From: a virus
DNA length: 64,000 bases
Reading direction: 5' to 3' (one strand)
IMG/VR virus record: IMGVR_UViG_3300036851_000098
Location: 1-64,000 of that record
The notes under the pieces are model-generated. The model worked only from the letters and a program-made list of their open reading frames with translations. It did no database searches and was not told where the DNA came from. The position numbers and the translations under genes were made by a program. Shown in pieces: positions 4,429-60,980 of this stretch (positions are counted from its first letter, which is position 1; each line of letters opens with the position of its first letter).

Positions 4429-4460
4429 TCGCGGGCGAATCATCGCCTATAATGAGACCC
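4429..4460 (+). promoter_or_regulatory. Phage promoter motif copy 1
   Basis: TCGCG(4429)-N14-TATAAT(4448)-GAGACCC. Confidence 0.8.
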
Positions 4461-5144: not shown

Positions 5145-5171
5145 AGGAGAGCCTACACGGGCTTTCCTTTT
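5145..5171 (+). terminator. Terminator (TACAC loop family)
   Basis: AGGAGAGCC-TACACG-GGCTTTCCT-TTT. Confidence 0.8.
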
Positions 5172-5200
5172 CGCGTAAAAAACTTGTCATATAATAGAAC
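5171..5200 (+). promoter_or_regulatory. Phage promoter motif copy 2
   Basis: TCGCG(5171)-N14-TATAAT(5190)-AGAAC. Confidence 0.8.
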
Positions 5201-5218
5201 CACTACTAAGGAGTAATC

Positions 5219-5339: not shown

Positions 5340-5368
5340 TCGCGTATTTTTCATGTTGTATAATGAAA
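5340..5368 (+). promoter_or_regulatory. Phage promoter motif copy 3
   Basis: TCGCG(5340)-N14-TATAAT(5359)-GAAA. Confidence 0.8.
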
Positions 5369-5458
5369 GAAGTAGCTCTAAGCAATACGTTAAGTCGGAT
5401 TCGTACCCGAGAAATATTACGGTAAAAGTCCGTCATAGAGCAATGCTTCTATTTTTTT
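5365..5458 (+). ncRNA. Putative small structured RNA A
   Basis: AGAAGTA/TGCTTCT and GCTCTA/TAGAGC close a multi-hairpin body; T7 tail; no RBS or ORF. Confidence 0.6.
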
Positions 5459-5680: not shown

Positions 5681-5712
5681 TCGCGGATAGTTCACTCCGT
5701 ATAACGAGACCA
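5681..5712 (+). promoter_or_regulatory. Phage promoter motif copy 4
   Basis: TCGCG(5681)-N14-TATAAC(5700)-GAGACC. Confidence 0.75.
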
Positions 5713-6008: not shown

Positions 6009-6040
6009 TCGCGAATTTTTCAGCTCATATAATGAGACTC
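6009..6040 (+). promoter_or_regulatory. Phage promoter motif copy 5
   Basis: TCGCG(6009)-N14-TATAAT(6028)-GAGACTC. Confidence 0.8.
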
Positions 6041-6322: not shown

Positions 6323-6354
6323 TCGCGTATTTTTCATGCATTGTAATGAGACCC
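6323..6354 (+). promoter_or_regulatory. Phage promoter motif copy 6
   Basis: TCGCG(6323)-N14-TGTAAT(6342)-GAGACCC; shares CCCTGCAATTCGCGTATTTTTCATG with copy 3. Confidence 0.8.
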
Positions 6355-7596: not shown

Positions 7597-7626
7597 TCGC
7601 GAAAAATTCACGTCATAAAATGAGAA
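7597..7626 (+). promoter_or_regulatory. Phage promoter motif copy 7
   Basis: TCGCG(7597)-N14-TAAAAT(7616)-GAGAA. Confidence 0.75.
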
Positions 7627-7730
7627 GAACCCTATCTATGTGTTTATGATCTCACAGGCACTCATAAACTAAATAGCAAAGATAGGGGGACCATGATCCC
7701 ACAGGCACTCATGGTCTCTTCTTATTTTTT
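7622..7730 (+). ncRNA. Putative small RNA B with twin loops
   Basis: Repeats ATGATCYCACAGGCACTCAT at 7646 and 7693, each capping its own stem; closed by GAGAAGA/TCTTCTT; T tail. Confidence 0.7.
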
Positions 7731-8839: not shown

Positions 8840-9159
8840 TGCCCAAAGTACCCCAAAAGTCTTGGCGAGGACGCGAGTTTCCTCTTGACAAGCATCTGAA
8901 AGACATTCGCGCGGTACGAGTGAGCGCTATCGAAGAAGAGTTGGTGAATCGTGGCTTCTGGTACGTTCAAGTCAAAGGAGACAACGGAGAATTCAGAATT
9001 CGATGTCGGTGCGGAGACATCCGCCCATGGATTGAACATCACTTCGAACAACAGACTCTCTTAGATTTCACCATATTTCCATACAAATGGGATGTTGGTA
9101 GTAAGTTAGATGTAGTCAACATCTTCGTCAAGGCGAAGGTGCACAAACTCGCGACGTAA
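8839..9159 (+). CDS. Hypothetical protein
   Basis: TAATG coupling, 106 aa. Confidence 0.55.
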   Translation: MPKVPQKSWRGREFPLDKHLKDIRAVRVSAIEEELVNRGFWYVQVKGDNGEFRIRCRCGDIRPWIEHHFEQQTLLDFTIFPYKWDVGSKLDVVNIFVKAKVHKLAT

Positions 9160-9179
9160 ACATGCTGTATAATGAAAGG
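9149..9179 (+). promoter_or_regulatory. Phage promoter motif copy 8
   Basis: TCGCG(9149)-N14-TATAAT(9168)-GAAAGG. Confidence 0.8.
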
Positions 9180-10490: not shown

Positions 10491-10553
10491 TCGCGGCAAA
10501 ATCACGGCACTTAATAGGAGGGCCCAGAGTACGTTTCTGGGCCTTCTATTTTT
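10491..10553 (+). ncRNA. Promoter motif copy 9 plus ~40-nt single-hairpin RNA D
   Basis: TCGCG(10491)-N14-CTTAAT then AATAGGAGGGCCCAGA/TCTGGGCCTTCTATT-TTT. Confidence 0.5.
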
Positions 10554-14593: not shown

Positions 14594-14625
14594 TCGCGTA
14601 AAATTCACGCATAATAATGAGACCC
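14594..14625 (+). promoter_or_regulatory. Phage promoter motif copy 10
   Basis: TCGCG(14594)-N14-AATAAT-GAGACCC. Confidence 0.75.
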
Positions 14626-14950: not shown

Positions 14951-14980
14951 AAGGGAGGCCCTAACACAGCTTCTCTTTTT
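14951..14980 (+). terminator. Terminator (CTAACAC loop family)
   Basis: AAGGGAGGC-CCTAACACA-GCTTCTCTT-TTT. Confidence 0.75.
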
Positions 14981-15096
14981 CGCGTGAAAATCACTCTCTT
15001 TAATAGAAGAATAGATAATTTCCGCGCTTCCTTTGGAAGCAGTCTACTGGTGGCGGAATTAAAAAGACTATTACCAGCATCTGCTCTTCTCTTTTT
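14980..15096 (+). ncRNA. Promoter motif copy 11 plus small structured RNA E
   Basis: TCGCG(14980)-N14-TTTAAT; AGAAGA/TCTTCT closing stem, TTCCGC/GCGGAA, GCTTCC/GGAAGC, T tail. Confidence 0.6.
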
Positions 15097-16264: not shown

Positions 16265-16435
16265 ATGGAGGAGTCGACCGAAGAAGAGTTTCGCGTCTCG
16301 CGTCCTCTTCCTTGCCCAGAGTGCCTAAGCGCAAAGGGTTTCAACAGAGTGGGTAAGTTCCGCTCGCAATGCCAAAACTGCAACGCGCTGATCCCAAACT
16401 CAGCGATTGACCAAGAAGATCAGGAGCCTCAATGA
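16265..16435 (+). CDS. Small zinc-finger protein
   Basis: CPEC...CQNC; RBS AGGAG. Confidence 0.55.
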   Translation: MEESTEEEFRVSRPLPCPECLSAKGFNRVGKFRSQCQNCNALIPNSAIDQEDQEPQ

Positions 16436-22300: not shown

Positions 22301-23205
22301 AAGATTTTGAGGCTGCCTCCTACATGATGGATGGGCGCCTGAAGCCGTTCCTCCTAAACGAGGACGAAAGCTATGACGTAGAGGGAGCTGACAAGCTTGC
22401 CTACGCACTCAAGATCGTGATCAATATTGTTTACGGTCTCACTTCTGCCAAGTTCGATAATCCGTTCCGCGATATTCGCAACGTCGACAACATCGTCGCC
22501 AAACGCGGCGCCTTATTCATGATCGATCTCAAGCACGCCTTGCAAGAGAAGGGCGTCTCGGTTGTGCACATCAAGACGGACTCTGTCAAGATCCCGGATA
22601 CTACTCCGGATATCATCAAATTTGTCACAGAGTTCGGTGCCAAGTACGGGTATGACTTCGAGCACGAAGAGACATATGACCGATTCTGCCTGGTCAACGA
22701 TGCGGTCTACGTGGCTGGGATTCAGGCAGTGCCTTGGGAAGAGAACTTCCCGAAGTATAAGTGGACTGCTGTTGGTGCACAGTTCCAGCACCCTTACGTC
22801 TTCAAGACGTTGTTCTCAGAAGAAGATATTTCGTTTGAGGATTATCGAGAGGGTCGTTCTGTCGTCAAGGGAGCGATGTATCTCGATAAAGCGGAAATGG
22901 AAGAGCCTGACTACACCAAGATGCGCCATATTGGCAAGACTGGCCTGTTCGTTCCAGTTCTGTCTGGTGGCGGAAAGCTTTACCGCGTCAACAAAGATAC
23001 AGATGCCGAAGGTCACGATATCGAAAAATACTACGCGGTGAGCGGTACTAAGGGCCATCTCTGGATGGATGCCGATGAAGCAAGCGAAGCCAACGAGAAG
23101 GGCAATCTCGAAATTGACATGTCATATTTCGAGAAATTGAAAGATGACGCCGTCAAGACGATCGAGAAGTTCGGTAACTTCGACGAATTCATAGGGAGGA
23201 AGTGA
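19348..23205 (+). CDS. Fused SF3 helicase / primase / 3'-5' exonuclease / family B-like DNA polymerase
   Basis: GPPGTGKST Walker A; VIDFD..SKSGSGIHLHY prim-pol motifs; FFDVE and YN..YD exonuclease motifs; DVASMHP, K..IN..YG and HIKTDS polymerase motifs. Confidence 0.85.
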   Translation: MDFYQILARETKDKNDPRLELYPDFVVGRSEDLMVQGGKFYAIWDEEKGLWSRDEYDVQRLVDEDLRQTRERLEQDTGQKYTVKFMRSFHSNIWAQFRKFMAHISDNSKPLDRKLVFANTEVKKKDYASKKLPYDIGEGDISAWEELTSTLYSPDERAKIEWAIGSIVAGDSKKIQKFLVFYGPPGTGKSTILNIIQQLFEGYTTSFDGKALGSSSSQFATEAFKYNPLVAIQHDGDLSRIEDNARLNSIVAHEEMTMNEKYKPSYSSRIDAMLFLGSNQPVRISDAKSGIIRRLIDIHPTGIKFAPKRYQTLMTQIGFELGAIAHHCHQVYLTMGKNFYNGYRPLEMMLQTDVFFNFIEAYFDVFKKQNYTTLKQAYTMYREYCAESGIERPMPQYKMREELRNYFDEFKDRGEIDGEAVRSLYMGFTAEKFKTPTDDPTQFSLVLEEKTSLLDELLARFPAQLANADGMPTKRWANVTTTLSDIDSRKIHYVKVPEKHVVIDFDLKDQNGHKALERNLEAASHWPATYAEISKSGSGIHLHYNYTGGDVSDLRRDYADGIEVKVYTGDASLRRRLTRCNNVGVAEISSGLPLKDKREPMLKTKTMQSEQGLRDLIQRNLRKEIHPGTKPSVDFIKKVLDDAYESGIQYDVTDLRSRIVAFANNSSNQAQACLKTVNEMRWKSEEAGETKEEAFTSDHNVDVKDDRIAFFDVEVYENLFVICWKFQGSDEVVKMVNPKAHEVAELFSLKLVGFYNRRYDNHILYAAAMGASNAELFTLSKKLVIDNNRSVSFAQAYNLSYADIWEFSSEKKSLKKFEIDLGILHMELDIPWDQPVDEKDWPRVVAYCENDVRATEAVFEDRKGDFTARLILAELSGLTPNDTTQNHTAKIIFGDKVKTANKDFVYTDLSKEFPGYKFELGKSYYKGEEPGEGGYVYAEPGMYSNVAVLDVASMHPMSIIKLNAFGPYTQKFEDLIKARIAIKRKDFEAASYMMDGRLKPFLLNEDESYDVEGADKLAYALKIVINIVYGLTSAKFDNPFRDIRNVDNIVAKRGALFMIDLKHALQEKGVSVVHIKTDSVKIPDTTPDIIKFVTEFGAKYGYDFEHEETYDRFCLVNDAVYVAGIQAVPWEENFPKYKWTAVGAQFQHPYVFKTLFSEEDISFEDYREGRSVVKGAMYLDKAEMEEPDYTKMRHIGKTGLFVPVLSGGGKLYRVNKDTDAEGHDIEKYYAVSGTKGHLWMDADEASEANEKGNLEIDMSYFEKLKDDAVKTIEKFGNFDEFIGRK

Positions 23206-33761: not shown

Positions 33762-33793
33762 TCGCGAAGTTTTCATGGGGTATAATGAGACCC
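33762..33793 (+). promoter_or_regulatory. Phage promoter motif
   Basis: TCGCG(33762)-N14-TATAAT(33781)-GAGACCC. Confidence 0.8.
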
Positions 33794-34028: not shown

Positions 34029-34086
34029 AAGAGAATCTTCACGGATTCTCTTTTTCGCGAGATATTCACGCAGCATAATGAGACCC
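34029..34086 (+). promoter_or_regulatory. Terminator fused to the next promoter motif
   Basis: AAGAGAATC-TTCACG-GATTCTCTT-TT|TCGCG(34055)-N14-CATAAT-GAGACCC. Confidence 0.8.
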
Positions 34087-43635: not shown

Positions 43636-44139
43636 ATGATAGAGAATGATGGATGGAGGCCGGTGGAAGGATTTCCTGGTTATAGCATAAACGCCCTAGG
43701 CCAGATTGCAAGAGACTCTACTGGTCGGTTGCTGCGTCCAAGGTATAATCAGTATGGTGTCCCCTACGTCGGACTTATGCGAAATTGGCAACAGTGTATT
43801 CGTTCTCTACCCCGATTGGTGGCGTTGGCGTTTCTAGATAATCCATCGGATATTTTCGATACTCCGATTCAAATAGATGGGGATCCGGCTAACTGTCGAG
43901 CCGACAATCTGATGTGGCGTCCTCGGTGGTATGCGGTGCTTTACAAGAAGCAGTTTGAAAAGGAAGGTCGATATGAGAATCCTATCGATTCTCCTGTGCA
44001 TGCTGTGAACGAAGGAGAGCGTTTTTCAAACTCTTTGGAGGCAGCGTGCCGGTATGGTCTTCTAGAACGTGAGGTCGTGTTGTCTATTCTTAATAAGACA
44101 CCAGCATGGCCTACATATCAATTCTTCGAGATGCTGTAG
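43636..44139 (+). CDS. NUMOD4/HNH-derived protein
   Basis: WRPVEGFPGYSI...G.I......LL...RLVA.AF....IDGD..NC..DNL.W; HNH His apparently lost. Confidence 0.7.
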   Translation: MIENDGWRPVEGFPGYSINALGQIARDSTGRLLRPRYNQYGVPYVGLMRNWQQCIRSLPRLVALAFLDNPSDIFDTPIQIDGDPANCRADNLMWRPRWYAVLYKKQFEKEGRYENPIDSPVHAVNEGERFSNSLEAACRYGLLEREVVLSILNKTPAWPTYQFFEML

Positions 44140-44366
44140 GGGTCAAATGGAATCCGAGATTTTGGTAAACCTTAGTTTGCGTCTGCCTCAAGCGGATCGG
44201 CGAGCATTAGCTGACCATTTGGCCCCAGTTATCAAGGAGGCAATCATTGCTGGAGGAGACAGTGTAGTTGTTTCGTTGCAACCGTATGATCCAGACAAAG
44301 ACCCAGAAGGCGAGGAATAGAGCCAAATAGTGAGCAAATCACTCCTTATTTTTTTCAGATACTGGA

Positions 44367-44431
44367 TCGTGGAGAAATCGCGCCATATAATAGAAGGAGG
44401 GTACAATATCCCTTCTGCTTCTTTCTTTTTT
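44367..44431 (+). promoter_or_regulatory. Promoter motif variant plus hairpin ahead of the nuclease-RNAP operon
   Basis: TCGTG(44367)-N14-TATAAT(44386)-AGAAGG, then hairpin and T tract. Confidence 0.65.
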
Positions 44432-44452
44432 CGGCGATCGGAAGGAGGTTTT

Positions 44453-44770
44453 GTGGCTGAGAACGCCTATCAGCGAAAATTGATCCGTAAGTTGAAGAGA
44501 ATGTTTCCTGGCTGCGAAATCCTCAAAAACGATTCGCAATATCTTCAAGGAGTGTTGGATCTTACAATTTTGTGGGGTCCTTTGTGGGCAATGCTTGAGG
44601 TTAAAACGTCTCGTGATGCTCCATTTCGTCCAAATCAAGAGTACTACATCAAGCGGTTTGATGAGATGGCGTTTGCGTCTTCTATCTGCCCCGAAGATGA
44701 AGAGGAGGTGCTAACTGCGCTTCAACAAGCATTCGCATCTCGAGGGGCAGCATGCGTTCCTCAGTCCTAG
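44453..44770 (+). CDS. VRR-NUC/Holliday junction resolvase-like nuclease
   Basis: E..YQ..LI..L....G..D......WA.LEVK......PNQEYY. Confidence 0.75.
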   Translation: MAENAYQRKLIRKLKRMFPGCEILKNDSQYLQGVLDLTILWGPLWAMLEVKTSRDAPFRPNQEYYIKRFDEMAFASSICPEDEEEVLTALQQAFASRGAACVPQS

Positions 44771-45275
44771 TTCGTATCACTGGATCAACTACGACGAAGA
44801 AAAACTTAGGTTTCGCTATAAGACTCTTCGTGCGGCGCTCGAAGGAATAGAGCAGCATCGCTACGCAGCGATTTGTATCGCCGAAAGGATTGTCCAAGAT
44901 GATGAAAGAACAACCCTGGGACTGTACATCAATCAATGCATTCAATACAGAATGCACCCAGAAATTGTCCTGTTTTATTCTCCTAATGCATTCGGAACAG
45001 TTGACGCCATTGCGTATCGATATCGAGTGCTTAGGATCTCAGATCTCAAGACAGGAGCCACTCGAGTCTCAGAACATCAGCTGGAAGTATATGCAGCGTT
45101 TTTCTGTCTCGAGTACGAAATTAGTCCTTTCCACATGAGAGGAATTGAGCTTCGTATTTACAAAGACGGCAAAGTACAGGTGTACGATGCTGATCCCCAC
45201 TACATAAAGGGGCTCATGGATAAGATCGTTCGTTTCGACGGAATTCTCAACATGCTTCGAGAGGAGGTGTCGTAG
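44715..45275 (+). CDS. Cas4-like PD-(D/E)XK exonuclease with CTG start
   Basis: Frame reads LRFNKHSHLEGQHAFLSPSSYHW...FGTVDAI..LRISDLKTG...QLEVYAA; RBS GAGGAGGTG. Confidence 0.75.
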   Translation: MRFNKHSHLEGQHAFLSPSSYHWINYDEEKLRFRYKTLRAALEGIEQHRYAAICIAERIVQDDERTTLGLYINQCIQYRMHPEIVLFYSPNAFGTVDAIAYRYRVLRISDLKTGATRVSEHQLEVYAAFFCLEYEISPFHMRGIELRIYKDGKVQVYDADPHYIKGLMDKIVRFDGILNMLREEVS

Positions 45276-48139
45276 TGCGCGTTACTGAAGAAGACTACTT
45301 GATGCATTACGGCATCAAGCGTAAGTCAGGTCGGTATCCTTGGGGATCTGGTCAGAATCCTCTACAACGTTCAAAGACGTTCCTAGGAATAATCGAGCAA
45401 CACAAGAAAATCGACAAAATGACTGAGTCCGAGATTGCTAGGGCATACTCGGATAATGATCACAAACTCAGTGTCGCTGACATTAGAGCAATGAGGTCTA
45501 TTGCTGGTGCAGAAGTCAAGATGGATCAGATTCGTACTGCCCAACGTCTAAGAGATAAGGGTATGGGCGCGTCTGCGATTGCAAGGCAGATGGACCTAAA
45601 CGAGTCTACTGTCCGTTCGCTTCTGGAGCCAGGTAGGCAGGAGAAGTTGGACATTCTCATGAATACCGCCGACATGCTCAAGCGGCAGGTCGAAGAAAAG
45701 GGTATGATTGACGTCGGTTCAAACGTCAATCTAGATCTTCCGATTGGCGACAATCCTGCCACCCGAATCGGAATTAGTCCAGATAAGTTTGCTACTGCTC
45801 TTTCCATGCTCAAGGAAGAGGGCTACCAAGTTCATACTTTCAACGCCCCTCAGGTTGGAACTGGAGAGATGACCAAGTACAAGGTGCTGGTCAAGCCTGG
45901 GGTTACGCAGAAAGAAGCTTGGTCCAATCGTGACAACATTCGTCTGATCTCGGAAAAGACCGACGATCGTGGCAGAAATTTCACCGATTTTGGTATCCAG
46001 CCTCCGTTGAATGTCTCCTCCAAGCGAGTGGGCATCAACTATAAGGAGGATGGTGGTAGTGACGCGGACGGCGTGATCTATGTTCGTCCTGGTGTCCCTG
46101 ATATAACGCTTGGTAAATCTCGTTATGCTCAGGTTCGTATTGCGATTGATGGTTCACACTATCTCAAGGGTATGGCTGTCTACAAAGACAATCTACCCCC
46201 TGGCATGGATCTTCAGTTCAATACGAACAAGTCCAACACGGGCAATAAGCGTGACGCTATGAAACCCCTGAAGAGGGACCCTCAAACGGGTGAGGTCGAT
46301 AAGGATAACCCATTTGGTGCCGTCATCAAGAAGGATGGCCAGATCCTAGATAAGAATGGGAAAGTCAAGTCGGCGATGAATCTCATCAACGAAGAGGGTG
46401 ATTGGGATACATGGTCAAGAAACTTGTCCAGTCAGGTTCTCTCGAAGCAGAAGCCTGAACTAATTAAGACCCAATTGGATCTTACTCATGATCGGCGTAG
46501 AGCTGAGCTTGAAGAAATTCGCTCGCTCACTAACCCGCAGATCAAGAGAAAGCTTCTCGAAACTTTCGCTGAAGAGACTGATGCTGCAGCTGTGCATCTC
46601 AAAGCAGCAGCTATGCCTAATCAGGCTACTAAAGTCATTCTTCCGTCGAACAAAGTAAAGCCTAATGAGATCTTTGCTCCTACTTTCAGGGATGGAGACA
46701 AGGTTGCTCTTGTGCGATTCCCTCATGCGGGAACGTTCGAGATTCCAGAACTGACTGTTAACAACAAGTCACGTGAAGCAAAGGCTCTAGTTGGACTGAA
46801 CAAGGGTGGGACAGCAAGAGACGCTGTAGTCATTCACCCCAAGGTAGCAGAGAGACTATCTGGTGCTGACTTTGATGGCGACGCTGTCGTTGTCATTCCA
46901 AACAATCGTGGGCGGATTACCCATAAGCCCCCGTTGGAGGGACTTAAGGGATTTGATCCTCAAAGCGAATTTGCTCCCTATCATGGTATGAAGACCATTG
47001 ATGGAGGAACGTACAACGCTACTACAAAGAAGATCGAATACCCTAAGGACAAGGACGGTAACGAACGCAGTCCCAACAAGTCGAGAAAACAGCATGAGAT
47101 GGGTAACGTTACCAACCTAATCTCTGACATGACCATTCGTGGTGCTAACAACGACGAGATAGCTCGTGCAGTGAAGCACTCTATGGTGGTTATCGATTCT
47201 GAGAAGCATGTTCTCGACTTCAAGGCTTCGGAGAGAATCAACGGAATCACAGCTCTTAAGAAGAAGTATCAAGGCGTGCACCCTAAGACAGGGCAAGCAC
47301 GTGGTGCTTCTACGATCATTACTCGTGCTACTGCACAGACTCATCCTGTACAAAGGAAGGACGCATCAGCTGGTCCTGGCAGAACTAGGATCTCTAGTGG
47401 TACGGTTGACAATCGTACAGGTAAGAAGCTGTATGAACCTACGGGTAAGCGTAAGCGTGACGGTAGTCTAGCTACGTTTAAGTCTCAGAAGTTGGCTGAG
47501 ACAGATGATGCCTTTGAGTTGGTGTCAAAAGGTAGGGGCACTACGGAAGAACAGCTCTATGCTGAGCATTCTAATCGGCTTAAGGCTATGGCCAATGAGG
47601 TACGTAAAGAACTAATCCGTATCAAGCCCATCCCCTACTCGCCCTCAGCCAACAAGGTGTACAAGCATGAAGTGGATTCGCTTACAGCGAAATTGCGTAA
47701 GGCTGAAAAGAACGCCCCCCTCGAACGGCAGGCCCAGGCTGTAGCCAGGCGGATCGTTGCGGATCGTAAACGCGCAAACCCAGGGATGGAGAAGGACGAG
47801 GAGCGGAAGATCAAAGGTCAGGCGTTGACCGAAGCTCGACGTAGAACAGGAGCGGGTAAAGTACGCCTAGGTTCTGATGAATCCCCCATTACTGATCGTG
47901 AGTGGGAAGCTATTCAGAATGGTGCGATCTCGAATCACATGTTGGATAACATCTTGAAGAACTCTAACATAGACAAGATCCGTGAGCGCGCAACACCTAG
48001 AGAGAAGCCTGTGATGAGTAATGTCATGACAGCTAGGGCCAGGCAGATGATTGCGTCTGGGTACCCATTGTCGGTCATTGCTGAGCAACTGGACATTCCT
48101 GTGTCCACCCTTAAGTCTGGGCTTGAGGATGGGGGGTGA
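45275..48139 (+). CDS. Single-chain two-barrel (DPBB) RNA polymerase with terminal HTH domains
   Basis: DG..Y, QVR...LKG, RFPHAG and LSGADFDGD (46868-46882); HTH at N- and C-termini. Confidence 0.8.
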   Translation: MRVTEEDYLMHYGIKRKSGRYPWGSGQNPLQRSKTFLGIIEQHKKIDKMTESEIARAYSDNDHKLSVADIRAMRSIAGAEVKMDQIRTAQRLRDKGMGASAIARQMDLNESTVRSLLEPGRQEKLDILMNTADMLKRQVEEKGMIDVGSNVNLDLPIGDNPATRIGISPDKFATALSMLKEEGYQVHTFNAPQVGTGEMTKYKVLVKPGVTQKEAWSNRDNIRLISEKTDDRGRNFTDFGIQPPLNVSSKRVGINYKEDGGSDADGVIYVRPGVPDITLGKSRYAQVRIAIDGSHYLKGMAVYKDNLPPGMDLQFNTNKSNTGNKRDAMKPLKRDPQTGEVDKDNPFGAVIKKDGQILDKNGKVKSAMNLINEEGDWDTWSRNLSSQVLSKQKPELIKTQLDLTHDRRRAELEEIRSLTNPQIKRKLLETFAEETDAAAVHLKAAAMPNQATKVILPSNKVKPNEIFAPTFRDGDKVALVRFPHAGTFEIPELTVNNKSREAKALVGLNKGGTARDAVVIHPKVAERLSGADFDGDAVVVIPNNRGRITHKPPLEGLKGFDPQSEFAPYHGMKTIDGGTYNATTKKIEYPKDKDGNERSPNKSRKQHEMGNVTNLISDMTIRGANNDEIARAVKHSMVVIDSEKHVLDFKASERINGITALKKKYQGVHPKTGQARGASTIITRATAQTHPVQRKDASAGPGRTRISSGTVDNRTGKKLYEPTGKRKRDGSLATFKSQKLAETDDAFELVSKGRGTTEEQLYAEHSNRLKAMANEVRKELIRIKPIPYSPSANKVYKHEVDSLTAKLRKAEKNAPLERQAQAVARRIVADRKRANPGMEKDEERKIKGQALTEARRRTGAGKVRLGSDESPITDREWEAIQNGAISNHMLDNILKNSNIDKIRERATPREKPVMSNVMTARARQMIASGYPLSVIAEQLDIPVSTLKSGLEDGG

Positions 48140-48143
48140 AACA

Positions 48144-48434
48144 GTGGCTCACGAACCTGAATACATGTTGACAACGGTAGACAACCCATTTGATCCTTGG
48201 ACACAGTGGGATGAATGGTTCGCTTACGATCAGAATTCTGGGTACAATACCCCCGGCCTCCTGGCCAGGGTAGCTCTTGCCTCTAACGAATTAGCTGAAG
48301 TGGATCAAGATCATGCTATCCAGACAGCTATCCAAGAGATCGTGCGCGAGAATGTTTCTGGTGTTCATACGAAAGTGAAAGAAGGAGAAGTACAAACACT
48401 TTCTAATCAGAACGAATCTGAGACCGAGGCATAA
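48144..48434 (+). CDS. Conserved small protein directly downstream of the RNAP gene
   Basis: MLTTVDNPFDP.TQWDEW..YD...GYNT...LAR. Confidence 0.65.
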   Translation: MAHEPEYMLTTVDNPFDPWTQWDEWFAYDQNSGYNTPGLLARVALASNELAEVDQDHAIQTAIQEIVRENVSGVHTKVKEGEVQTLSNQNESETEA

Positions 48435-48589
48435 GGTTTATGTTAAATCTCAGGTATAGAAATTAGGTATCTCACATGAGTGAAGCACGACCCCCCTACC
48501 TCCACCTACCATGGATAGATAGTTAAAGAAAAACTTTTTCATACATGTTCTTTTCTTTTTTTTTGTAAAAGATTAGAAAAGAAATTTTT

Positions 48590-48680
48590 AGAACGGGTAG
48601 GGGGGAGGGGTCAAAAAAATTTAACCCCCCGTGTGCATCGCTCGGCTCCCAAAAATATCCCCGGGGGGATTTTTTCTGGG
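48590..48680. other. Probable genome terminus/cos region
   Basis: Non-coding junction between the RNAP operon and the packaging/lysis module; G/C/A homopolymer runs and CGCTCGGCTCC followed by AAAAATATCCCCGGGGGGATTTT. Confidence 0.5.
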
Positions 48681-48788
48681 AACAATCTGGTATGGTACCC
48701 GGCATAAACCCCTTGGTAAGCGCGAAGAAGCCTTACTCATCAGTTCGAAACATAGTGCAAAAATTTTCAGATAAGAAAGGAGGCACCG

Positions 48789-49475
48789 ATGGGCATCCAT
48801 GTCAAGGGTGTTGAACAGCAGTACTCCAATCTGGGCCGCCAGATGGTTCATGATTCCAAGTCGCGTGCCTTCCCAACCGATGTCATCATCGACAAATCGA
48901 AGTGGGTTGATAAGAAGGTTCGTATCTACGACCCTGAGATCAATCCGAATCAGTGTCACGGCGAGTGCACGGGTTGCGCGAAAGCGATGGAGATGAATGC
49001 GCTTGGTAATCGGGTCGCCGGTGTTGTTCTCGGAATGAACAAAGCACACGAACTGTATTCGGCGGCAACTAAGATCGATCCATTCGAAGGAACGTGGCCG
49101 CCTGAAGATACTGGGTCGTCTGGTCTCGCTGCAGCGAAGGCGGCAAAAGCCTTAGGGCTCGGTGGGGCCTATCGTCACGTATTCGGTGGAGCAAACGAAG
49201 TTGTGCAGTTGATCATGCTCGGCCGCGTTGTCAACATCGGGACGTGGTGGTACGAAGGTATGTTCCACCCGAACTCATACAAAGTCATCGTGCCAACTGG
49301 CGACATTGTTGGCGGCCATCAGTACATCGCAAGAGGGTACGATGTCGACACCGACCGTGTCATGATTCGCTGCTGGTGGGGCTCGTTCCGAGATGTATGG
49401 ATCAAACGGTCGGACCTTCATAAGCTTTTACTGGATGGTGGGGATGCTCACATCCAGGATCGACTCAAGCCGTAG
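48789..49475 (+). CDS. Papain-like cysteine peptidase
   Basis: NQ..GECTG.A, LYS.AT..D, DTGSS, GGHQY, WG...VWI. Confidence 0.7.
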   Translation: MGIHVKGVEQQYSNLGRQMVHDSKSRAFPTDVIIDKSKWVDKKVRIYDPEINPNQCHGECTGCAKAMEMNALGNRVAGVVLGMNKAHELYSAATKIDPFEGTWPPEDTGSSGLAAAKAAKALGLGGAYRHVFGGANEVVQLIMLGRVVNIGTWWYEGMFHPNSYKVIVPTGDIVGGHQYIARGYDVDTDRVMIRCWWGSFRDVWIKRSDLHKLLLDGGDAHIQDRLKP

Positions 49476-49617
49476 CTTATGACTGTCCTGTTTAGTGTGA
49501 TAAACATTCATTCGGGTGCAGTCATATCCACCGTGACATACGTTGTCGGGCTGAAGTCCGATCGCGTACTATCGGTATCGTCAGGTAAGAGATAGTACAC
49601 ACAACTAAGGAGGCATC

Positions 49618-49830
49618 ATGGCCCCTATCGAAGACGAGAATGTCCCGCACGAGGCTGAGCACGCTGCTGCAACCGATGCTCAGATGCGCCGCACTTCAGA
49701 TCACGCGGCCATCGCAGATCTCGCGGCCCCGTCCGCGGCATATGTGGAGGCTGAGCAGATCGCACAGACCAACGCGATCAATGCGATCCTCGACGTCCTC
49801 CGAGACGCCGAGCTGATCCCGAGCGCGTAA
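49618..49830 (+). CDS. Small head-fibre-like protein
   Basis: AAIADL.....INAILDVLRDAELI fibre-terminal pattern. Confidence 0.45.
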   Translation: MAPIEDENVPHEAEHAAATDAQMRRTSDHAAIADLAAPSAAYVEAEQIAQTNAINAILDVLRDAELIPSA

Positions 49831-49899
49831 ACTTCTGTGACGTGGGGTAGGCGCTTACTCAGGTCTGCCCCACCTCACGAAGAGGAAGGAGGTGAGTGT

Positions 49900-50145
49900 A
49901 TGAACGCTACCACTCACGAAGCAGTGGGAACCGTGATCGAGTATGTTGATCCGGTCGGTAAGAGTCACGATGCGCTGGTCACCGCTGTTTGGGGACCAGA
50001 TCTTGGTGTGAACTCCATTAACTTGGTGTTCGTTTCGGATAATCATGCGAAGACCGACTCGTGTGGTCGCCAGATTGTACGAGAAACTAGCGTCTCGCCC
50101 GAAGGACCAAACACAGCATACGGTAGATTTTACCGAATCAAGTAG
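49900..50145 (+). CDS. Conserved small phage protein
   Basis: VG..I.Y.......ALVTAVW....INLVF. Confidence 0.55.
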   Translation: MNATTHEAVGTVIEYVDPVGKSHDALVTAVWGPDLGVNSINLVFVSDNHAKTDSCGRQIVRETSVSPEGPNTAYGRFYRIK

Positions 50146-50213
50146 TCTCAATTGGGGTGGCGCCGACGAGGTACCTCAAAGCCCCGAGGCCATATACAAA
50201 CAGGAGAGACATT

Positions 50214-50447
50214 ATGCATCTTACAAAGGATGAACTCGCGCATCGGTTCCAGTTCCATCCGGCCGACGCACAGAACAAGAAGGAAGCTCATGAGGAAGTT
50301 CGCAATGTGTTGCTCGAGGCTGCCGACAAGATTGTTGACCTTACGGGTGCTCAGTCACGTGAACAATCGCTTGCGGTGACCCATCTCGAGGAAGCTATGT
50401 TCTGGGCAAACGCTGCCATTGCACGCGGCGATGGACCGAGGACGTGA
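50214..50447 (+). CDS. Acb2/Tad1-like hairpin protein (putative nucleotide-signal sponge)
   Basis: RF.FH...SREQSLAVTHLEEAMFWANAAIAR. Confidence 0.6.
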   Translation: MHLTKDELAHRFQFHPADAQNKKEAHEEVRNVLLEAADKIVDLTGAQSREQSLAVTHLEEAMFWANAAIARGDGPRT

Positions 50448-50890
50448 GCGCACTTCTCATGATTCCGCGACTTATTGTCGTGGACCGGGAGAACTTCACA
50501 CTCGACATCTATCGATGGCGTACGTTCAAACAACGTTACGATACTCAACATCGATATATGGTCACCGTAGGCAAGGAAGGCAATGAGACTCCTCATGGTC
50601 TGTACTTTGTCGAGCGTAAGACACGAGAAGCAGACTGGCGTATTCCAGAAGACCCGGACTATTCCGAAGAAAGCTGGGGAAGCATCGTTCCACACGGCGC
50701 CCCAGGCAATCCGTTCAAAAGCGGATTCATATCTCTGGGTGGAGATGTATCGGGCATTGGCATTCACGATACGACGTTTGAACCTCGAGTGGGTACAGCG
50801 TCTAGTCATGGGTGTATCCGGATGAGAACTGAGGATTTTCTGGAGATCTATGATAGGTGCAAGATCGGAACACCAGTCTATCTACACTAG
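50444..50890 (+). CDS. L,D-transpeptidase (YkuD)
   Basis: V.VGK...TP.G, IGIH.T, SHGCIRM, GTPV. Confidence 0.85.
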   Translation: MSALLMIPRLIVVDRENFTLDIYRWRTFKQRYDTQHRYMVTVGKEGNETPHGLYFVERKTREADWRIPEDPDYSEESWGSIVPHGAPGNPFKSGFISLGGDVSGIGIHDTTFEPRVGTASSHGCIRMRTEDFLEIYDRCKIGTPVYLH

Positions 50891-50932
50891 GAGAGTTGGC
50901 TAACAGGACTGTAGGGGACCTGGGAGGCAACA

Positions 50933-51253
50933 ATGTATTTCGTTGTACCACAGACGTGGGTTACTCCGGCGATAACCGCCGCGGCTCTTCATTTCGGGCC
51001 AATTGGCCAACCTGTGGAAGTTAAGTATCGGGCTCTCGATTGGGGGATAGGTACGATCGACAGACCGAACGTGATAATTGTGGATAAGCGACCAAGATGG
51101 GATTGGTCTAGAGTAAAAGCTCAATGCACGCTTGTTCATGAGTATGGACATTTGACAGGAAATAGACACTCAGACAATCCGAAATCAGTAATGTATCCGG
51201 TTTACAGATACCGGGTTTGCAAACGATGGCTAATACGCCATGGGGTGCTGTAA
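50933..51253 (+). CDS. Matrixin-like metallopeptidase
   Basis: HEYGHLTG.RHS.NPKSVMYP (HExxHxxGxxH plus Met-turn). Confidence 0.75.
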   Translation: MYFVVPQTWVTPAITAAALHFGPIGQPVEVKYRALDWGIGTIDRPNVIIVDKRPRWDWSRVKAQCTLVHEYGHLTGNRHSDNPKSVMYPVYRYRVCKRWLIRHGVL

Positions 51254-51269
51254 AAGAAGGAGAGATAAA

Positions 51270-51650
51270 TTGACCAACGCACGGCCGAACACAAAGTTCT
51301 TGGACAATCTTGACGAGGCTACTCTTCGCCAAGTGTGTAGCAGGCTAGATGCGCTTGAACCTTATATTGCGGAGCATCGAGATCTTGTCAAACGTCGCCG
51401 TGCGTTGGAGATTCGCCTGGGCAAAATTTCAAAGTCGGATCGAGTGCGACAACTTCTTGCTCATCATCCTAATGGGCTTACACGAGCAGTGATAGGAGAT
51501 AAACTTGACATAACAGTCGGACTGTCGGGAGTGTTGGGTGAACTTAAACGACAAGGGCATATCGATCAGCCTGGGAAAGGACTCTATCGGCTCACTGACC
51601 TTGGCCATCAGGCCACGAGTTCAATGGTGGTTAACCAAAACGCAACCTAA
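51270..51650 (+). CDS. Coiled-coil plus winged-HTH protein
   Basis: TTG after AGGAG; LL..HP.GLT...I...L..LK..G.I....GLYRLT. Confidence 0.55.
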   Translation: MTNARPNTKFLDNLDEATLRQVCSRLDALEPYIAEHRDLVKRRRALEIRLGKISKSDRVRQLLAHHPNGLTRAVIGDKLDITVGLSGVLGELKRQGHIDQPGKGLYRLTDLGHQATSSMVVNQNAT

Positions 51651-52284
51651 TCGACAAGATCATGAAGATCTTGTAAGCGCGGTGATGATTCAGCTTTTAG
51701 AGGCTGAAGTAAGATTTACCGGTACTCCAGAAACTTGGCCAGCATATGCTTGGCCTAGAATCAAAGGCACTATTCTTGACGAAATTCGTAAAACTAAACC
51801 AAGAGGGTTTCGTCGACGGCGACACGATGATACACCTGTGATCGTGTCTATTAACGAATTCATTGGGGAAACCGATCAGACTCTAAGCGATACGATTCCT
51901 GATATAAAAGCGATCATCGATCATGATCCGGTCGCAGAACAGAAATTTGCTGATGCTATCTCCGCACTTTCTGTTAACGAACGGGTTGTGGTTGAGTTAA
52001 TGATTGACCAGGATCTGTCATCAGCCGATATAGCAAAAGTCCTTGGCGTAACTAATGGGCGAGTAAGTCAGATGGCGAAAGCTATTCGACATCAACTAGT
52101 AGAGAGTCTTGCGCACCCAATGCTACGCAAGGAGGCTCTTTGTTCTCTACGCTCTGAAAGCTTTCTCCGTGATCGAGTCCGGAGTGGTCACAGCGTAAGA
52201 GAGATAGCAGACGAACTAGGTGTAGCTCGAACCAGCGTTCGAGAATGGATGAGGCTATACCAAATTCAACCAGTCAATCGCTGA
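51538..52284 (+). CDS. FliA/WhiG-like sigma factor with extra C-terminal HTH (start uncertain)
   Basis: EDLVS.....LLEA..RF, YA..RIKG.ILDEIR, LS.NER.V......LS..DIA.VLGVT.GRVSQ. Confidence 0.75.
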   Translation: MNLNDKGISISLGKDSIGSLTLAIRPRVQWWLTKTQPNRQDHEDLVSAVMIQLLEAEVRFTGTPETWPAYAWPRIKGTILDEIRKTKPRGFRRRRHDDTPVIVSINEFIGETDQTLSDTIPDIKAIIDHDPVAEQKFADAISALSVNERVVVELMIDQDLSSADIAKVLGVTNGRVSQMAKAIRHQLVESLAHPMLRKEALCSLRSESFLRDRVRSGHSVREIADELGVARTSVREWMRLYQIQPVNR

Positions 52285-52325
52285 AGTAAGCGGTCAAACT
52301 AACACTAAAGAAAGGAGTGTGACTA

Positions 52326-52655
52326 ATGGCCAGATCAAGATCGTCTGATCGTAAGAACAACCCAGCGCGCACTCCTGAAGCGCGGGAGCTACAACTTGCC
52401 TCGGCGGCTTACGACCTAGCTGAGGAACAGCTCAACGCTGGCACAGCCTCATCGCAGGTAATCACCCACTTCCTGAAGATGGGGTCAACAAGGGAACGTC
52501 TCGAGCAGCAAAGCATCCAGCACGACATCGAACTCAAGAAGGTGAAGGCCGAGCAGATCGAAGCGCAGAAGCACATTGAGAGCCTCTTTGTCGAGGCCAT
52601 CAGTGCGATGCGGTCGTATCAGGGTGGGGAGCCAGTCGAGTCTCCGGACGAGTAA
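52326..52655 (+). CDS. Conserved packaging-region protein (possible small terminase)
   Basis: PA.TPEARE.QL...A.DLAE.QL..GTASSQVITHFLK.GS.RE.LE; precedes the HNH gene. Confidence 0.6.
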   Translation: MARSRSSDRKNNPARTPEARELQLASAAYDLAEEQLNAGTASSQVITHFLKMGSTRERLEQQSIQHDIELKKVKAEQIEAQKHIESLFVEAISAMRSYQGGEPVESPDE

Positions 52656-52660
52656 GTTCT

Positions 52661-53071
52661 ATGCGAACTCGAACCTATAGAGAGCTTCGACGTATTGGAA
52701 CCTTTGAAGAGCGCTTCCAATATCTCTCGCTTTCTGGTGAAGTCGGAGCAGCGACTTTCGGCTTTGATCGTTGGGTCAATCAGCAGTTCTATCGTTCCAG
52801 AGAGTGGAAGCAAGCTCGCAACTATGTTGTTGTAAGAGACAACGGTTGTGATCTGGGAATTCCTGGTTTAGAAATTCAAAATGGGTATGTGGTTCACCAC
52901 ATGAATCCACTGACTCCAGAAGATTTGGAACGAGGTGGCGATTGGATTCTCGATCCAGAGTATCTGATCACCACCACACATCGCACGCACAACGCCATTC
53001 ACTACGGTGATGAGAGTTTACTCCGCAGAGCGCCTGTTGAAAGACGACCTGGGGATACAAAGCTGTGGTAA
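52661..53071 (+). CDS. HNH endonuclease (packaging-associated)
   Basis: RDNGCDLG...HHMNP...YLITT.H.THNAIHYG. Confidence 0.8.
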   Translation: MRTRTYRELRRIGTFEERFQYLSLSGEVGAATFGFDRWVNQQFYRSREWKQARNYVVVRDNGCDLGIPGLEIQNGYVVHHMNPLTPEDLERGGDWILDPEYLITTTHRTHNAIHYGDESLLRRAPVERRPGDTKLW

Positions 53072-53198
53072 CTCATCCACAGTAAAGGATCGTGAACGAC
53101 CCGGCTTCGTAGGAGCTGAAGCGAGATGAGCGGGGAGGGCGATGGCCCCGGTTGAGTCGTCCAACCGTCGACCCGTTGAATAGACATAAAGGAGAGTA

Positions 53199-53918
53199 AT
53201 GTCAAGATTTATCCTCGATACGAGGCTGAGTGAAGCTCACTACGTTCTTTGTACGGAAGCCATTCGTCGTGGCATCATCACGCCGAGCGATCTTAACGAA
53301 GGTCGCCGGACAATGGACGAACAGTGGGCATTCTATAACAATCAGCCCCCATTGGCTGCATATCCTCGTCCGACTGCCCCACACATCTGGGCAGGTAAGG
53401 CGAATCATGCAATTGATGCCAACTCCTGGAATGGCGCGGCGCGACGTCTGGCCAACTTCTACGAGAGTCAAGGCGTTGACGTCGTTTTCAACGTTCCGGG
53501 TGAGAATTGGCACTTCCAGCCTACATCTGAGTCGCAGCTTCTCAATGCTGCTAATCGGATTCGGGATCGCCGCGATCTCCTAATTTCCAAAGTTGGAGAG
53601 ACCGAGCCACGTATCAACTTCTTCAAGTTCCAGCTGCACTACATTCACGATCCGGATACTGGGAAGTCATATTTCCAGCCTGGTCAGAAGCGCCCTGACG
53701 AAGGCTACGGAGACAAGTTCACTCCGGAGCTTGAAACTTCAGTTAAGAAGTTCCAACGAGATCACGATCTCAAGGCTGACGGCGTCATCGGGCCGATCAC
53801 CGATCGTAAGATCGATGCCGCGTATACGCGCGCGAAGAACAACCGTACACTCAAGTCTGTTGAGCTGCATGCCAAGGAGCGTAAGGCTCGGGTCGAGGCT
53901 GGAAAGGCGGCGATGTGA
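53199..53918 (+). CDS. Endolysin: M15-like peptidase plus peptidoglycan-binding domain
   Basis: R...EQ, AA.P..A.H, AID, E.WHF; VKKFQ....LKADG.IGP.T. Confidence 0.75.
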   Translation: MSRFILDTRLSEAHYVLCTEAIRRGIITPSDLNEGRRTMDEQWAFYNNQPPLAAYPRPTAPHIWAGKANHAIDANSWNGAARRLANFYESQGVDVVFNVPGENWHFQPTSESQLLNAANRIRDRRDLLISKVGETEPRINFFKFQLHYIHDPDTGKSYFQPGQKRPDEGYGDKFTPELETSVKKFQRDHDLKADGVIGPITDRKIDAAYTRAKNNRTLKSVELHAKERKARVEAGKAAM

Positions 53919-55127: not shown

Positions 55128-55553
55128 ATGGAACAGAGCATTCTAAAGAGTACCAAGAAGTATGTGGGTCTTGATCCTGAAAACACAGCATTCGATCTTG
55201 ACATCCTCACCCTTATTAACTCGGCGTTCTCCACCATCCACGATCTGGGTGTGGGTCCTGATAGTGGCTTCGCTATCGAAGACGAAGAAACGGTGTGGCA
55301 GGATTTTCTTGATGAGGACCCCGTGCAGCTTGGGCATATCAAAATCGTCGTCTGGACTCGGACACGGCTGGGATTTGATCCTCCTACTCAGCAATTCCTT
55401 ATCGAGGCAATCAACAAGCAGCGTGAGGAAGCTGAGTGGCGACTCAACACGAACCGCGAAGCAGTCGCGTGGGTCGATCCTGATCCGGCTGATGTCGTAG
55501 ATGAAGACGAATTGGTCGTCCTCGACGGCGGCGACGCGGAGGATTCACCATGA
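55128..55553 (+). CDS. Head-to-tail adaptor
   Basis: SIL.STKK..GL......FD.DI...INS.FS....LGVGP...RL.FDPP......EWRLN. Confidence 0.75.
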   Translation: MEQSILKSTKKYVGLDPENTAFDLDILTLINSAFSTIHDLGVGPDSGFAIEDEETVWQDFLDEDPVQLGHIKIVVWTRTRLGFDPPTQQFLIEAINKQREEAEWRLNTNREAVAWVDPDPADVVDEDELVVLDGGDAEDSP

Positions 55554-59771: not shown

Positions 59772-60980
59772 ATGGGTAGTAATCTTGTCGTAGTGGCTAT
59801 CCCCGATGAGAACGATCGTGTATGGAAGGTCTCGAGCGAAAAGATTCCTCATCTCACCGTCCTCTTCCTGGGTGATGTGGACGAGGTTTCAAATCTCGAT
59901 CAGATCGTCCAGTTCGTGGAGCATGCGGCCGAGCAGACGCTGCGGCGGTTCTATCTTCCGGTGGACCGTCGCGGTGAGCTTGGCGCCGACAAAGCGGACG
60001 TTCTCTTTTTCAAGAAGGGACGTTACGACTTCAAGGCGATTCGAGACTTCCGAACGGCGCTTCTTCAGGACAGCAACATCAGGAAAGCGTACGATTCTAC
60101 AACACAATTCGAAACGCCGCCTGCGGTTGGTTCTCCTGGGCAGTCCTGGATCCCTCATCTGACTCTCGGCTATCCGACGTCGCCAGCCAAGCCTGAGAAG
60201 GGAGATCAGTATCCCGGATTCTACGACGTCTGCTTCCACAAGATCGCTGTGTGGGTGGGAGATTACGAGGGCTCCGAGTTTCTGTTGAAGGATCAGTGGG
60301 AAGAGATGGAGCTAGCTGAGGTTGCGCCAATGGACGTAGCTATGAGCGATCTGGTAAGTCGGAATCAGGCTCGTATTGCTCTCGGCCTTAAGGAGATCGA
60401 AGCCGAGCTCGAACACTATGGCGTGAAGGGTATGCGTTGGGGACAGCGTAGGTCGGAGCGTCAGCTTGCTGTGGCTCAGAAGCGAAGGAATGACGCTAAG
60501 ACTCTGGAAGAAGCTGCTGCTCGTAGAGGCGAAGGGGCTACTCGTGGAATCCTTGAGCGACTCGCTGCTCAAGAGCGAAGCGGAGCGCTTAAGCTTGAAG
60601 CCAAAGCTAGGTCAAGACAAGAGAAATTGGCTGAGAAAACGGCTACAGTAGAGCCTACCGCTAAGTCTGTTGTTCCTCCTGGGTCGAAGCGTAAGACTAA
60701 AATCGATGTTGAAGGTGGAGAAAATCATCCGGCTACGGAAGACGCGCTTAACGTAGCTAAGGCTCAAGTTAAATTGCAAAAGAGTGGTGCTGCTGCTCTC
60801 TCTAATAAAGAGCTTCGTGAAGTTGCTAATCGGCTGCAACTAGAGCAACAAGTCAAGCAGCTGTCTACGTCTGGTGGACGTAAGTTTGTAACTAACCTGT
60901 TGAGAGAACAGGGCAAGCAACAGACTCAAAGTCTTATCAACGAGCAGATCAGAGACTTGCGGCGTCGCCAGGCAGCATAA
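59772..60980 (+). CDS. 2H phosphoesterase fused to a HYGVKGMRWG domain
   Basis: PHLTVLFLG and PHLTLGY HxT motifs; LEHYGVKGMRWG; LSN.EL.....RL.LEQ. Confidence 0.75.
   Translation: MGSNLVVVAIPDENDRVWKVSSEKIPHLTVLFLGDVDEVSNLDQIVQFVEHAAEQTLRRFYLPVDRRGELGADKADVLFFKKGRYDFKAIRDFRTALLQDSNIRKAYDSTTQFETPPAVGSPGQSWIPHLTLGYPTSPAKPEKGDQYPGFYDVCFHKIAVWVGDYEGSEFLLKDQWEEMELAEVAPMDVAMSDLVSRNQARIALGLKEIEAELEHYGVKGMRWGQRRSERQLAVAQKRRNDAKTLEEAAARRGEGATRGILERLAAQERSGALKLEAKARSRQEKLAEKTATVEPTAKSVVPPGSKRKTKIDVEGGENHPATEDALNVAKAQVKLQKSGAAALSNKELREVANRLQLEQQVKQLSTSGGRKFVTNLLREQGKQQTQSLINEQIRDLRRRQAA

Follow-up and report, generated by a model that had tools for sequence, protein, structure and literature searches.

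The window analyzed here comprises 64,000 nucleotides, the first 64 kb of the 79,866-bp viral record IMGVR_UViG_3300036851_000098, which CheckV rates as complete. A search of sequencing runs for this DNA listed a single one, of soil-metagenome DNA and possibly its source, and none of RNA. The + strand of the window carries a nuclease-polymerase operon, in which genes for a VRR-Nuc-like protein and a Cas4-like exonuclease precede an open reading frame (ORF) for a protein of 954 amino acids and a small gene for a protein of 101 amino acids (Table 1). The same strand also carries a promoter-like motif in many copies. The product of the long ORF (45275–48139) is with high confidence a single-chain two-barrel RNA polymerase (RNAP) homologue of the family formed by orf75 of phage 1706 and the "HTH proteins" (HTH, helix-turn-helix) of actinophages. 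The best overall explanation of all observations, to which we assign a probability of roughly 0.6, is that this polymerase reads the repeated motif as its own early promoter.

Translation of the ORF revealed every short motif named in the initial annotation, i.e., HYG (residues 11–13), DG..Y (265–269), QVR...LKG (286–299), RFP (481–483), and GADFDGD (530–536). The HTH domains claimed for both ends were likewise recovered, an HTH_7 domain by Pfam near the N-terminus, where weaker HTH_23 and Sigma70_r4_2 matches were also obtained, and a Tc3/GcrA-like HTH by fold search at the C-terminus. HTH_7 was the sole Pfam family above threshold on the protein. The profile phrog_4291 ("RNA-dependent RNA polymerase") covers it from end to end (E = 0, 1173 bits, residues 3–952 versus profile positions 6–907 of 909). 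By tblastn, full-length homologues with 33–52% identity over at least 99% of the length were detected in isolated phages, and 250 isolated-phage records match at a coverage of at least 80%, their hosts including Arthrobacter, Gordonia, Streptomyces, Lactococcus, Curtobacterium, Rhodococcus, Microbacterium, and Faecalibacterium. The warning that such a protein could be mis-annotated proved apt, since most of these records carry the label "HTH DNA-binding domain protein". Metagenomes hold at least 8,000 homologues (all scored candidates match), which are named "CsgD family transcriptional regulator" or similar at their source, and at least 834 family clusters at 50% identity have E < 1e-30. An alignment of 64 homologues with 42–62% identity to the query shows no variation at Q286, R288, K298, G299, R481, P483, D532, D534, G535, and D536, and hardly any at D265. 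Judged from this alignment, purifying selection acts on the active-site residues of the polymerase homologue, and the invariance of the catalytic residues indicates selection for catalysis.

For structural comparison, an AlphaFold2 model was calculated on the 64-sequence alignment (predicted local distance difference test, pLDDT, 86.1; predicted template modelling score, pTM, 0.78). The top Foldseek matches in the PDB were all two-barrel RNAPs, namely QDE-1 (E = 3e-9), RDR2, and P74-26 gp62 (E = 2.5e-7), and further two-barrel matches comprised P32 gp64, P23-45 gp96, crAss gp66 (E = 0.012), Pol II, and bacterial beta′, with a probability of 1.00. VIA-align, which is independent of Foldseek, aligned the model to QDE-1 (Z 15.4 over 383 residues), P74 gp62 (Z 13.7 over 362 residues), RDR2 (Z 13.6), and gp96 (Z 9.9). 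The aligned ranges of the polymerase were residues 242–780 for QDE-1, 244–787 for P74 gp62, and 444–553 for isolated double-psi beta-barrel (DPBB) domains (Z 7–9). The core is flanked by three modules of DNA-binding type, the N-terminal HTH, a winged helix, and the C-terminal HTH. The DPBB fold initially proposed from the motif order is thereby supported by the alignments of the model to QDE-1, gp62, and RDR2 together with the invariant catalytic residues. Structure prediction had been suggested as a check, with the lack of a DPBB fold as a refutation; such a fold was found and this refutation fails. On the level of sequence, phmmer of the polymerase against PDB sequences gave no match, and hmmsearch of the family profile against the PDB gave HTH matches (including HTH repeats) only, plus a weak match to 8H2N at E = 0.25. 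No YonO structure turned up in the PDB searches. Of the "YonO/QDE-1 type" proposed initially, the match to QDE-1 is supported by fold; profile similarity to YonO was not detectable with hhalign.

It could be argued that the 954-aa protein is a DNA-binding regulator or structural protein with an inactive core, or that it makes RNA for another purpose such as priming or RNA-templated synthesis, as most records say HTH DNA-binding protein, the best structural match QDE-1 is RNA-dependent, and orf75 of phage 1706 is entered in GenBank as a "structural protein" (the basis of this label could not be confirmed). We consider this improbable, because none of the metal-binding aspartates or of the basic residues in the two barrels varies among the 64 sequences, the most distant of which have 42% identity, because the genome provides a primase-polymerase of its own (19348–23205), and because, according to the literature, the phage two-barrel enzymes tested so far (YonO, crAss gp66, P23-45 gp64, and gp96) are all DNA-dependent transcriptases (PMC5467207, PMC10770324).

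The family (PHROG 4291) is not new and was already described by computation in 2010 and 2021. The phage 1706 protein was listed among five "YonO-like" families (Ruprich-Robert & Thuriaux 2010, PMC2919709). Later, the same protein was described with HTH domains at both ends, a DxDGD motif, and an HHpred RNA-dependent RNA polymerase (RdRP) probability of 95.7% for the family alignment, and as a signature of an actinophage supercluster plus Lactococcus and Faecalibacterium phages (Koert et al. 2021, bioRxiv 10.1101/842583). The window contributes little past one more member; its own additions are a private sigma factor, a larger genome, and evidence on portal fusions.

The repeated TCGCG...TAAT element of the initial annotation was confirmed by a position weight matrix (PWM) scan, which located 15 copies, all on the + strand, versus ~0.2 expected in shuffles. 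The consensus begins with TTCGCG and continues, after a spacer of 14 nt, with TATAAT and GAGACC; the spacer holds a conserved CA, placed one helical turn past CGCG. Twelve copies lie in an early region of very small genes (4.4–15.1 kb), two in the replication module, and one at 44367 ahead of the nuclease-polymerase operon. A gene starts 25–34 nt past TATAAT for most copies, and a hairpin plus T-run abuts seven of them. In the late module (48.8–80 kb, wrapping to 4.4 kb), the same scan found no copy. As the copies stand only before early and replication genes, the layout is at odds with the analogy to YonO, an enzyme of late genes. A literature search with the motif string gave nothing relevant.

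Such an arrangement might also be expected if the motif were an ordinary early promoter of the host sigma-A, its extra conserved flanks serving strength or regulation, and the phage enzyme, though a two-barrel polymerase, were produced from these early transcripts and then served later genes from start sites that escaped recognition, in the way YonO serves the late operon of SPbeta (PMC5467207). In favor of this reading, most copies match TATAAT fully or almost fully, terminators of hairpin and T-run in small promoter-gene-terminator units typify host-transcribed early regions, and the polymerase gene closes the early/replication module and follows a motif copy, in line with early synthesis. 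The spacing, however, speaks against sigma-A, as the conserved upstream block lies 14 nt from TATAAT instead of the 16–18 nt of sigma-70 −35/−10 promoters, and a −35/−10 consensus scan of the 12 copies in 4–16 kb called none through its own TATAAT (8 sites versus 8.6 expected). Equally, no second promoter class for the late genes became apparent: the search of the late-region gaps for a second repeated motif yielded shared ribosome-binding sites only, and sigma-70-like promoters were likewise not detected in front of these genes. Sites of sigma-70 consensus are depleted in 44000–53300, with 2 (both on the non-coding strand) versus 10.2 ± 3.7 in shuffles.

Nine further polymerase-bearing genomes were compared with the window, the uncultured G001–G004 (40–78% polymerase identity) and the isolates 1706 (Lactococcus, 34% GC), Psst2 (Streptomyces), Gill (Gordonia), Gordon (Arthrobacter), and FP_oengus (Faecalibacterium). 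Together, the ten genomes contain 133 motif sites in a single gap-free register, 132 of which lie on the polymerase strand. The relatives have 9–23 copies each, except for the partial G003 with 3, while controls gave 0–0.4 matches in shuffles and 0–1 per matrix in 50 kb of SPbeta. Polymerases at least 48% identical to that of the window pair with TCGC(G/A)...CA...TATAATGAGA, and phage 1706 has the form CACA...ACA...CTATAGTAGAA (TATAGTAGAA). In G004 and FP_oengus, whose polymerases are mutually nearest at 44%, the form is CGC(A/G)...CA...(C/T)TTATGGAGG. On these sequences, the motif variants track the divergence of the polymerases. A variant copy lies upstream of the polymerase operon in eight of the ten genomes (window, G001, G002, G003, G004, Gill, Gordon, and FP_oengus). 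The non-structural set common to the relatives consists of DNA polymerase, helicase, single-stranded DNA-binding protein, DUF6353, nucleases, the two-barrel polymerase, and the small gene, and within this set only the two-barrel polymerase has modules for binding double-stranded DNA.

The comparison also bears on the host sigma-A. The element keeps its register in phages of two phyla, Firmicutes and Actinobacteria, that differ in their sigma-A promoters. A −10 hexamer with the key bases A2 and T6 is kept in seven of the ten genomes (window and six relatives), and TATAGT of phage 1706 retains both bases. Both are lost in G004 (TCTTATGG) and FP_oengus (CTTTATGG), where the "−10" reads CTTATGG/TTTATGG. 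Recognition of the motif by host sigma-A with late transcription by the phage enzyme appears unlikely, though it is the most serious competitor.

A polymerase reading its own promoter is the best-supported explanation of the pairing, which we infer from co-occurrence among related genomes. The enzyme is probably DNA-dependent and would initiate at the phage's own promoter of ~40 nt, TCGC(G/A)...CA...TATAAT-GAGACC. Recognition of the two upstream blocks would fall to the built-in HTH modules, and the AT-rich block would serve as the melting and start region. Promoters of this kind would head the tiny early units (4.4–15.1 kb), two units of the replication module, and the nuclease-polymerase operon. 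The late genes, which are without the motif, would be transcribed by another route, in this phage perhaps by host core with the private sigma factor or by read-through across the joined genome ends. A precedent is phage P23-45, which has two two-barrel RNAPs, each with its own promoter motif (PMC10770324).

Several points weigh against this explanation. Polymerase and motif are co-inherited by descent, so that the co-occurrence and co-divergence across ten genomes, which support the initially proposed pairing, are not independent proof of recognition. Host sigma-A holoenzyme could use the downstream block as a −10-only promoter in seven of the ten genomes, where this block matches TATAAT fully or almost fully. 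Terminators of hairpin plus T-run, as present before seven copies, are classically used by bacterial RNAP. As to the enzyme itself, the Pfam RdRP family (PF05183) remained below its gathering cutoff (14.4 versus 23.8 bits, E = 0.015, residues 523–648), and hhalign of the 64-sequence profile against the single YonO sequence gave a probability of 0.9% with a misregistered alignment. A literature search on the family found no biochemical study of any member.

The window also encodes a sigma-70-family factor with an extra C-terminal HTH (HTH_28), which could in principle steer the host core to the motif and leave another role to the 954-aa protein. Sigma regions 2 and 4 score above their Pfam cutoffs, and the two blocks of the motif resemble a −35/−10 pair. 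None of the nine relatives has a homologue of its gene, not even those at 66–78% identity with 18–23 copies of the motif, and the gene lies in an island (~48.6–51.5 and 53.2–54.7 kb) that is specific to this genome, is shared by none of the nine, and adjoins the late module. Being absent from the relatives, the factor cannot be the conserved reader of the motif and was rejected as such; the scenario is extremely improbable. The sigma factor may instead direct host polymerase to the late genes, and its presence beside a phage polymerase suggests a temporal programme with two polymerases.

If the enzyme alone reads the motif, its first molecules need another supply, as its own gene stands behind a promoter of the same type. 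An enzyme carried in the capsid would solve this bootstrapping problem, and on three independent hints we give packaging of the polymerase in the capsid and its injection with the DNA a little less than an even chance. One hint is the "structural protein" label of 1706 orf75. A candidate for a loading signal is the N-terminal peptide HYG...SGRYPWGSG, possibly a diverged DUF7211 head-loading tag, in which the 64 sequences agree throughout at G13, S18, G19, R20, G24, and G26; the pLDDT is below 50 for residues 12–34. A canonical DUF7211 (HYGVKGMRWGQRR, residues 208–229) occurs in an ORF of 402 aa immediately before the large terminase gene (TerL start at 60995). The N-terminal half of this ORF is weakly similar to 2H-phosphoesterase/LigT-like proteins, and it may represent two genes or one tagged cargo protein. 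Moreover, three long homologues (P0181, P0194, and P0314; 1,789–1,809 aa) carry the polymerase core without terminal HTH domains behind an extension of ~1,050 aa, which in P0181 opens with a portal domain (PF04860, 2.9e-29). The family of the P0181 extension consists of portal fusions with varied cargo, among them ADP-ribosyltransferase, NUDIX, Mu-F-like, and SAP domains. Delivery is rendered doubtful by the score of DUF7211 (PF23847) on the polymerase N-terminus, which at 15.9 bits lies below the cutoff of 27, by the fusion polymerases being rare single-contig proteins, and by the unconfirmed basis of the "structural" label of 1706 orf75. A scan of viral contigs with P0181 found ordinary standalone polymerases of 891–917 aa only. 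Tentatively, the complete picture would be a virion-delivered, promoter-specific polymerase in which HTH and winged-helix modules replace sigma and which is loaded by the N-terminal tag or by a rare portal-type fusion; in this full form it is rather doubtful.

In another metagenomic protein, P0315 (2020 aa), the first ~559 residues of a family polymerase are followed by the C-terminal two thirds of a tape-measure protein. Since both parts break away from domain boundaries, it is probably a chimeric assembly. Its tape-measure part belongs to the same PHROG as that of the window phage, and the combination recalls the fusion of P23-45.

Table 1. Positions in the window of the polymerase gene and its domains, the neighboring genes, the motif copies, and the further genes considered
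Feature	Position	Strand	Basis and remarks
Two-barrel RNA polymerase gene, 954 aa (P0001), GTG start	45275..48139	+	ORF list, PHROG 4291, AlphaFold2 model
N-terminal peptide, residues ~9-30 (HYG...SGRYPWGSG), candidate diverged DUF7211 head-loading tag	45299..45364	+	Invariant, disordered
N-terminal HTH, residues 82-113	45518..45613	+	Pfam HTH_7, 6.5e-7, 29.8 bits vs cutoff 23.8
Winged-helix module, residues 119-222	45629..45940	+	VIA-align to TFIIIC tau138 extended winged helix, Z 8.1, 93 residues
Two-barrel catalytic core, residues ~242-787	45998..47635	+	VIA-align ranges, invariant columns
Barrel A, residues ~242-330	within core	+	Q286, R288, K298, G299 invariant; D265/G266 also here
Barrel B, residues ~444-553	within core	+	R481, P483, D532, D534, D536 invariant
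DFDGD metal-binding loop, residues 532-536	46868..46882	+	D532, D534, G535, D536 invariant in 64 homologues
C-terminal HTH, residues 909-954	47999..48136	+	VIA-align: Tc3 transposase DNA-binding domain Z 7.0, GcrA Z 6.8
VRR-Nuc-like gene, first of nuclease-polymerase operon	44453..44770	+	Kept in 9/9 relatives
Cas4-like exonuclease gene, directly upstream of polymerase	44715..45275	+	phrog_3953; tblastn of Gill gp92
Small gene, 101 aa, translationally coupled to polymerase	48129..48434	+	phrog_4303 (function unknown), 1.5e-32
Promoter motif copy (TCGCG-N14-TATAAT-GAGACC)	4429..4459	+	39.4 bits; gene start 26 nt past TATAAT
Promoter motif copy	5171..5201	+	40.4 bits; hairpin (-18.1 kcal/mol) + T-run before
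Promoter motif copy	5340..5370	+	39.6 bits; hairpin + T-run before
Promoter motif copy	5681..5711	+	37.5 bits; gene start 25 nt downstream
Promoter motif copy	6009..6039	+	42.9 bits; hairpin + T-run before
Promoter motif copy	6323..6353	+	43.0 bits; hairpin + T-run before
Promoter motif copy	7597..7627	+	40.8 bits
Promoter motif copy	9149..9179	+	35.0 bits
Promoter motif copy, weaker	10491..10521	+	26.9 bits; upstream of DUF6353 gene at 10581
Promoter motif copy	14594..14624	+	45.3 bits
Promoter motif copy	14980..15010	+	38.3 bits; hairpin + T-run before
Promoter motif copy, best score	15096..15126	+	49.1 bits
Promoter motif copy in replication module	33762..33792	+	41.6 bits
Promoter motif copy in replication module	34055..34085	+	44.2 bits; hairpin + T-run before
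Weaker variant promoter copy ahead of nuclease-polymerase operon	44367..44397	+	29.7 bits
Sigma-70-family factor, genome-specific	51538..52284	+	Pfam Sigma70_r2 38.1 bits (cutoff 24), Sigma70_r4_2 42 (cutoff 25.7)
402-aa ORF with canonical DUF7211	59772..60980	+	Pfam 1.8e-11, 43.6 bits vs cutoff 27

Within the operon, the VRR-Nuc-like gene takes the place that belongs to the "VRR-Nuc domain protein" in phages Gill and Gordon. The Cas4-like gene is intact, as residues 2–178 of Gill gp92 align to 44736–45269 in a single frame by tblastn. A CTG codon at 44715 follows an in-frame stop and is preceded by GAGGTG, and no ATG, GTG, or TTG occurs before 44952. From these signals, CTG at 44715 is the probable start, so that automatic gene callers would shorten the product to 107 aa.

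The tight linkage of a small gene to the polymerase, as described initially, was borne out: its ATG overlaps the polymerase stop codon (48137–48139), and it lies directly 3′ of the polymerase gene in 9/9 relatives. In 36 sequences of the small protein, T16, D18, N19, P20, P23, W30, D34, Y39, L45, and R47 are invariant and form a conserved N-terminal motif. The product is a candidate accessory factor. A complex prediction of polymerase residues 118–954 with the small protein gave a score of 0.01, with which the program gave no answer, and this bears neither way on binding.

The surroundings correspond to those of PHROG 4291, with a Cas4-like nuclease upstream, a gene of ~85–100 aa downstream, and the end of the replication module beside a genome end. 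The polymerase gene is found at the far right of the genome in the isolates and in many contigs. In the present 79.9-kb record, the 3′ end cuts through a tail-module ORF (79015–79866), tail genes resume at positions 1–515 of the window, and C-rich and G-rich runs as well as a palindrome with T-run (48657–48676) are found near the putative genome end. Going by this arrangement, the assembly is permuted, and the physical genome end is probably located at ~48.44–48.79 kb. An HNH endonuclease gene (43636–44139, +) is situated between the replication genes and the nuclease-polymerase operon and occurs in some relatives only.

Among known systems, the 1706 orf75/actinophage family shares the HTH-core-HTH architecture, the order of nuclease, polymerase, and small gene, and the kind of repeated promoter motif. 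The window phage differs by its origin from a soil metagenome with 51% GC, its best isolate match being 52% identical, and by its larger genome (79.9 versus 55–60 kb) with the extra island and private sigma factor. YonO of SPbeta, compared by description only, is likewise a phage enzyme made of one ~100-kDa chain, in which two barrels and a DxDGD loop occur, but no such HTH module has been described, and it transcribes one late operon from an undefined promoter (PMC5467207), whereas the motif copies of the window stand before early and replication genes. Among solved phage structures, P23-45 gp64/P74-26 gp62, which are non-virion enzymes, and gp96, a virion enzyme fused to the tape-measure protein, come closest. 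These Thermus phage enzymes are single-chain two-barrel polymerases, each with its own conserved early-region promoter motif, and one is virion-delivered (Chaban et al. 2024, PMC10770324). They lack terminal HTH modules and have no significant sequence similarity to the window polymerase (E = 0.25 to 8H2N). To the tape-measure fusion of gp96 corresponds a portal-type fusion in the family studied here, where virion delivery is only hinted at. QDE-1 and RDR2 are the best overall structural match, including both barrels and the connecting helices, but with 11–14% identity they are eukaryotic, RNA-templated (QDE-1 uses both templates), and without promoter recognition. The crAss-like phi14:2 gp66 is a two-barrel enzyme as well, but with 2,180 aa it is larger and structurally distant. 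The role proposed for the window polymerase is that of gp66 and, by function only, of the virion RNAP (vRNAP) of N4, an injected enzyme reading phage early promoters without host polymerase. N4 vRNAP has a T7-like fold.

Two-barrel polymerases carry out all cellular transcription, and the family bears on how a minimal one-chain RNAP finds a promoter without a sigma factor. If the proposed mechanism is true, modular promoter recognition would for the first time be intrinsic to a two-barrel polymerase, in a family very abundant in soil and gut viromes. With culturable members in Gordonia, Arthrobacter, Streptomyces, and Lactococcus and a defined candidate promoter, the proposal is directly testable, and a compact orthogonal polymerase-promoter pair could serve as a tool for Gram-positive hosts.

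Some further genes of the window were noted. Two paralogous DUF6353 genes (phrog_2152, function unknown) are located at 10581–11378 and 16432–17376 (+), one of them behind a promoter copy, and this family is kept in most relatives. In the late module, a protein of 758 aa (515–2791, +) with a PKD domain and without PHROG match is likely a distal tail or receptor-binding protein. A tail-fibre gene for 942 aa (55550–58378, +) encodes long collagen-like Gly-X-Y repeats, with 9-nt-periodic direct repeats at 55.7–56.3 kb and repeats of ~184 nt at 57.1–58.0 kb.

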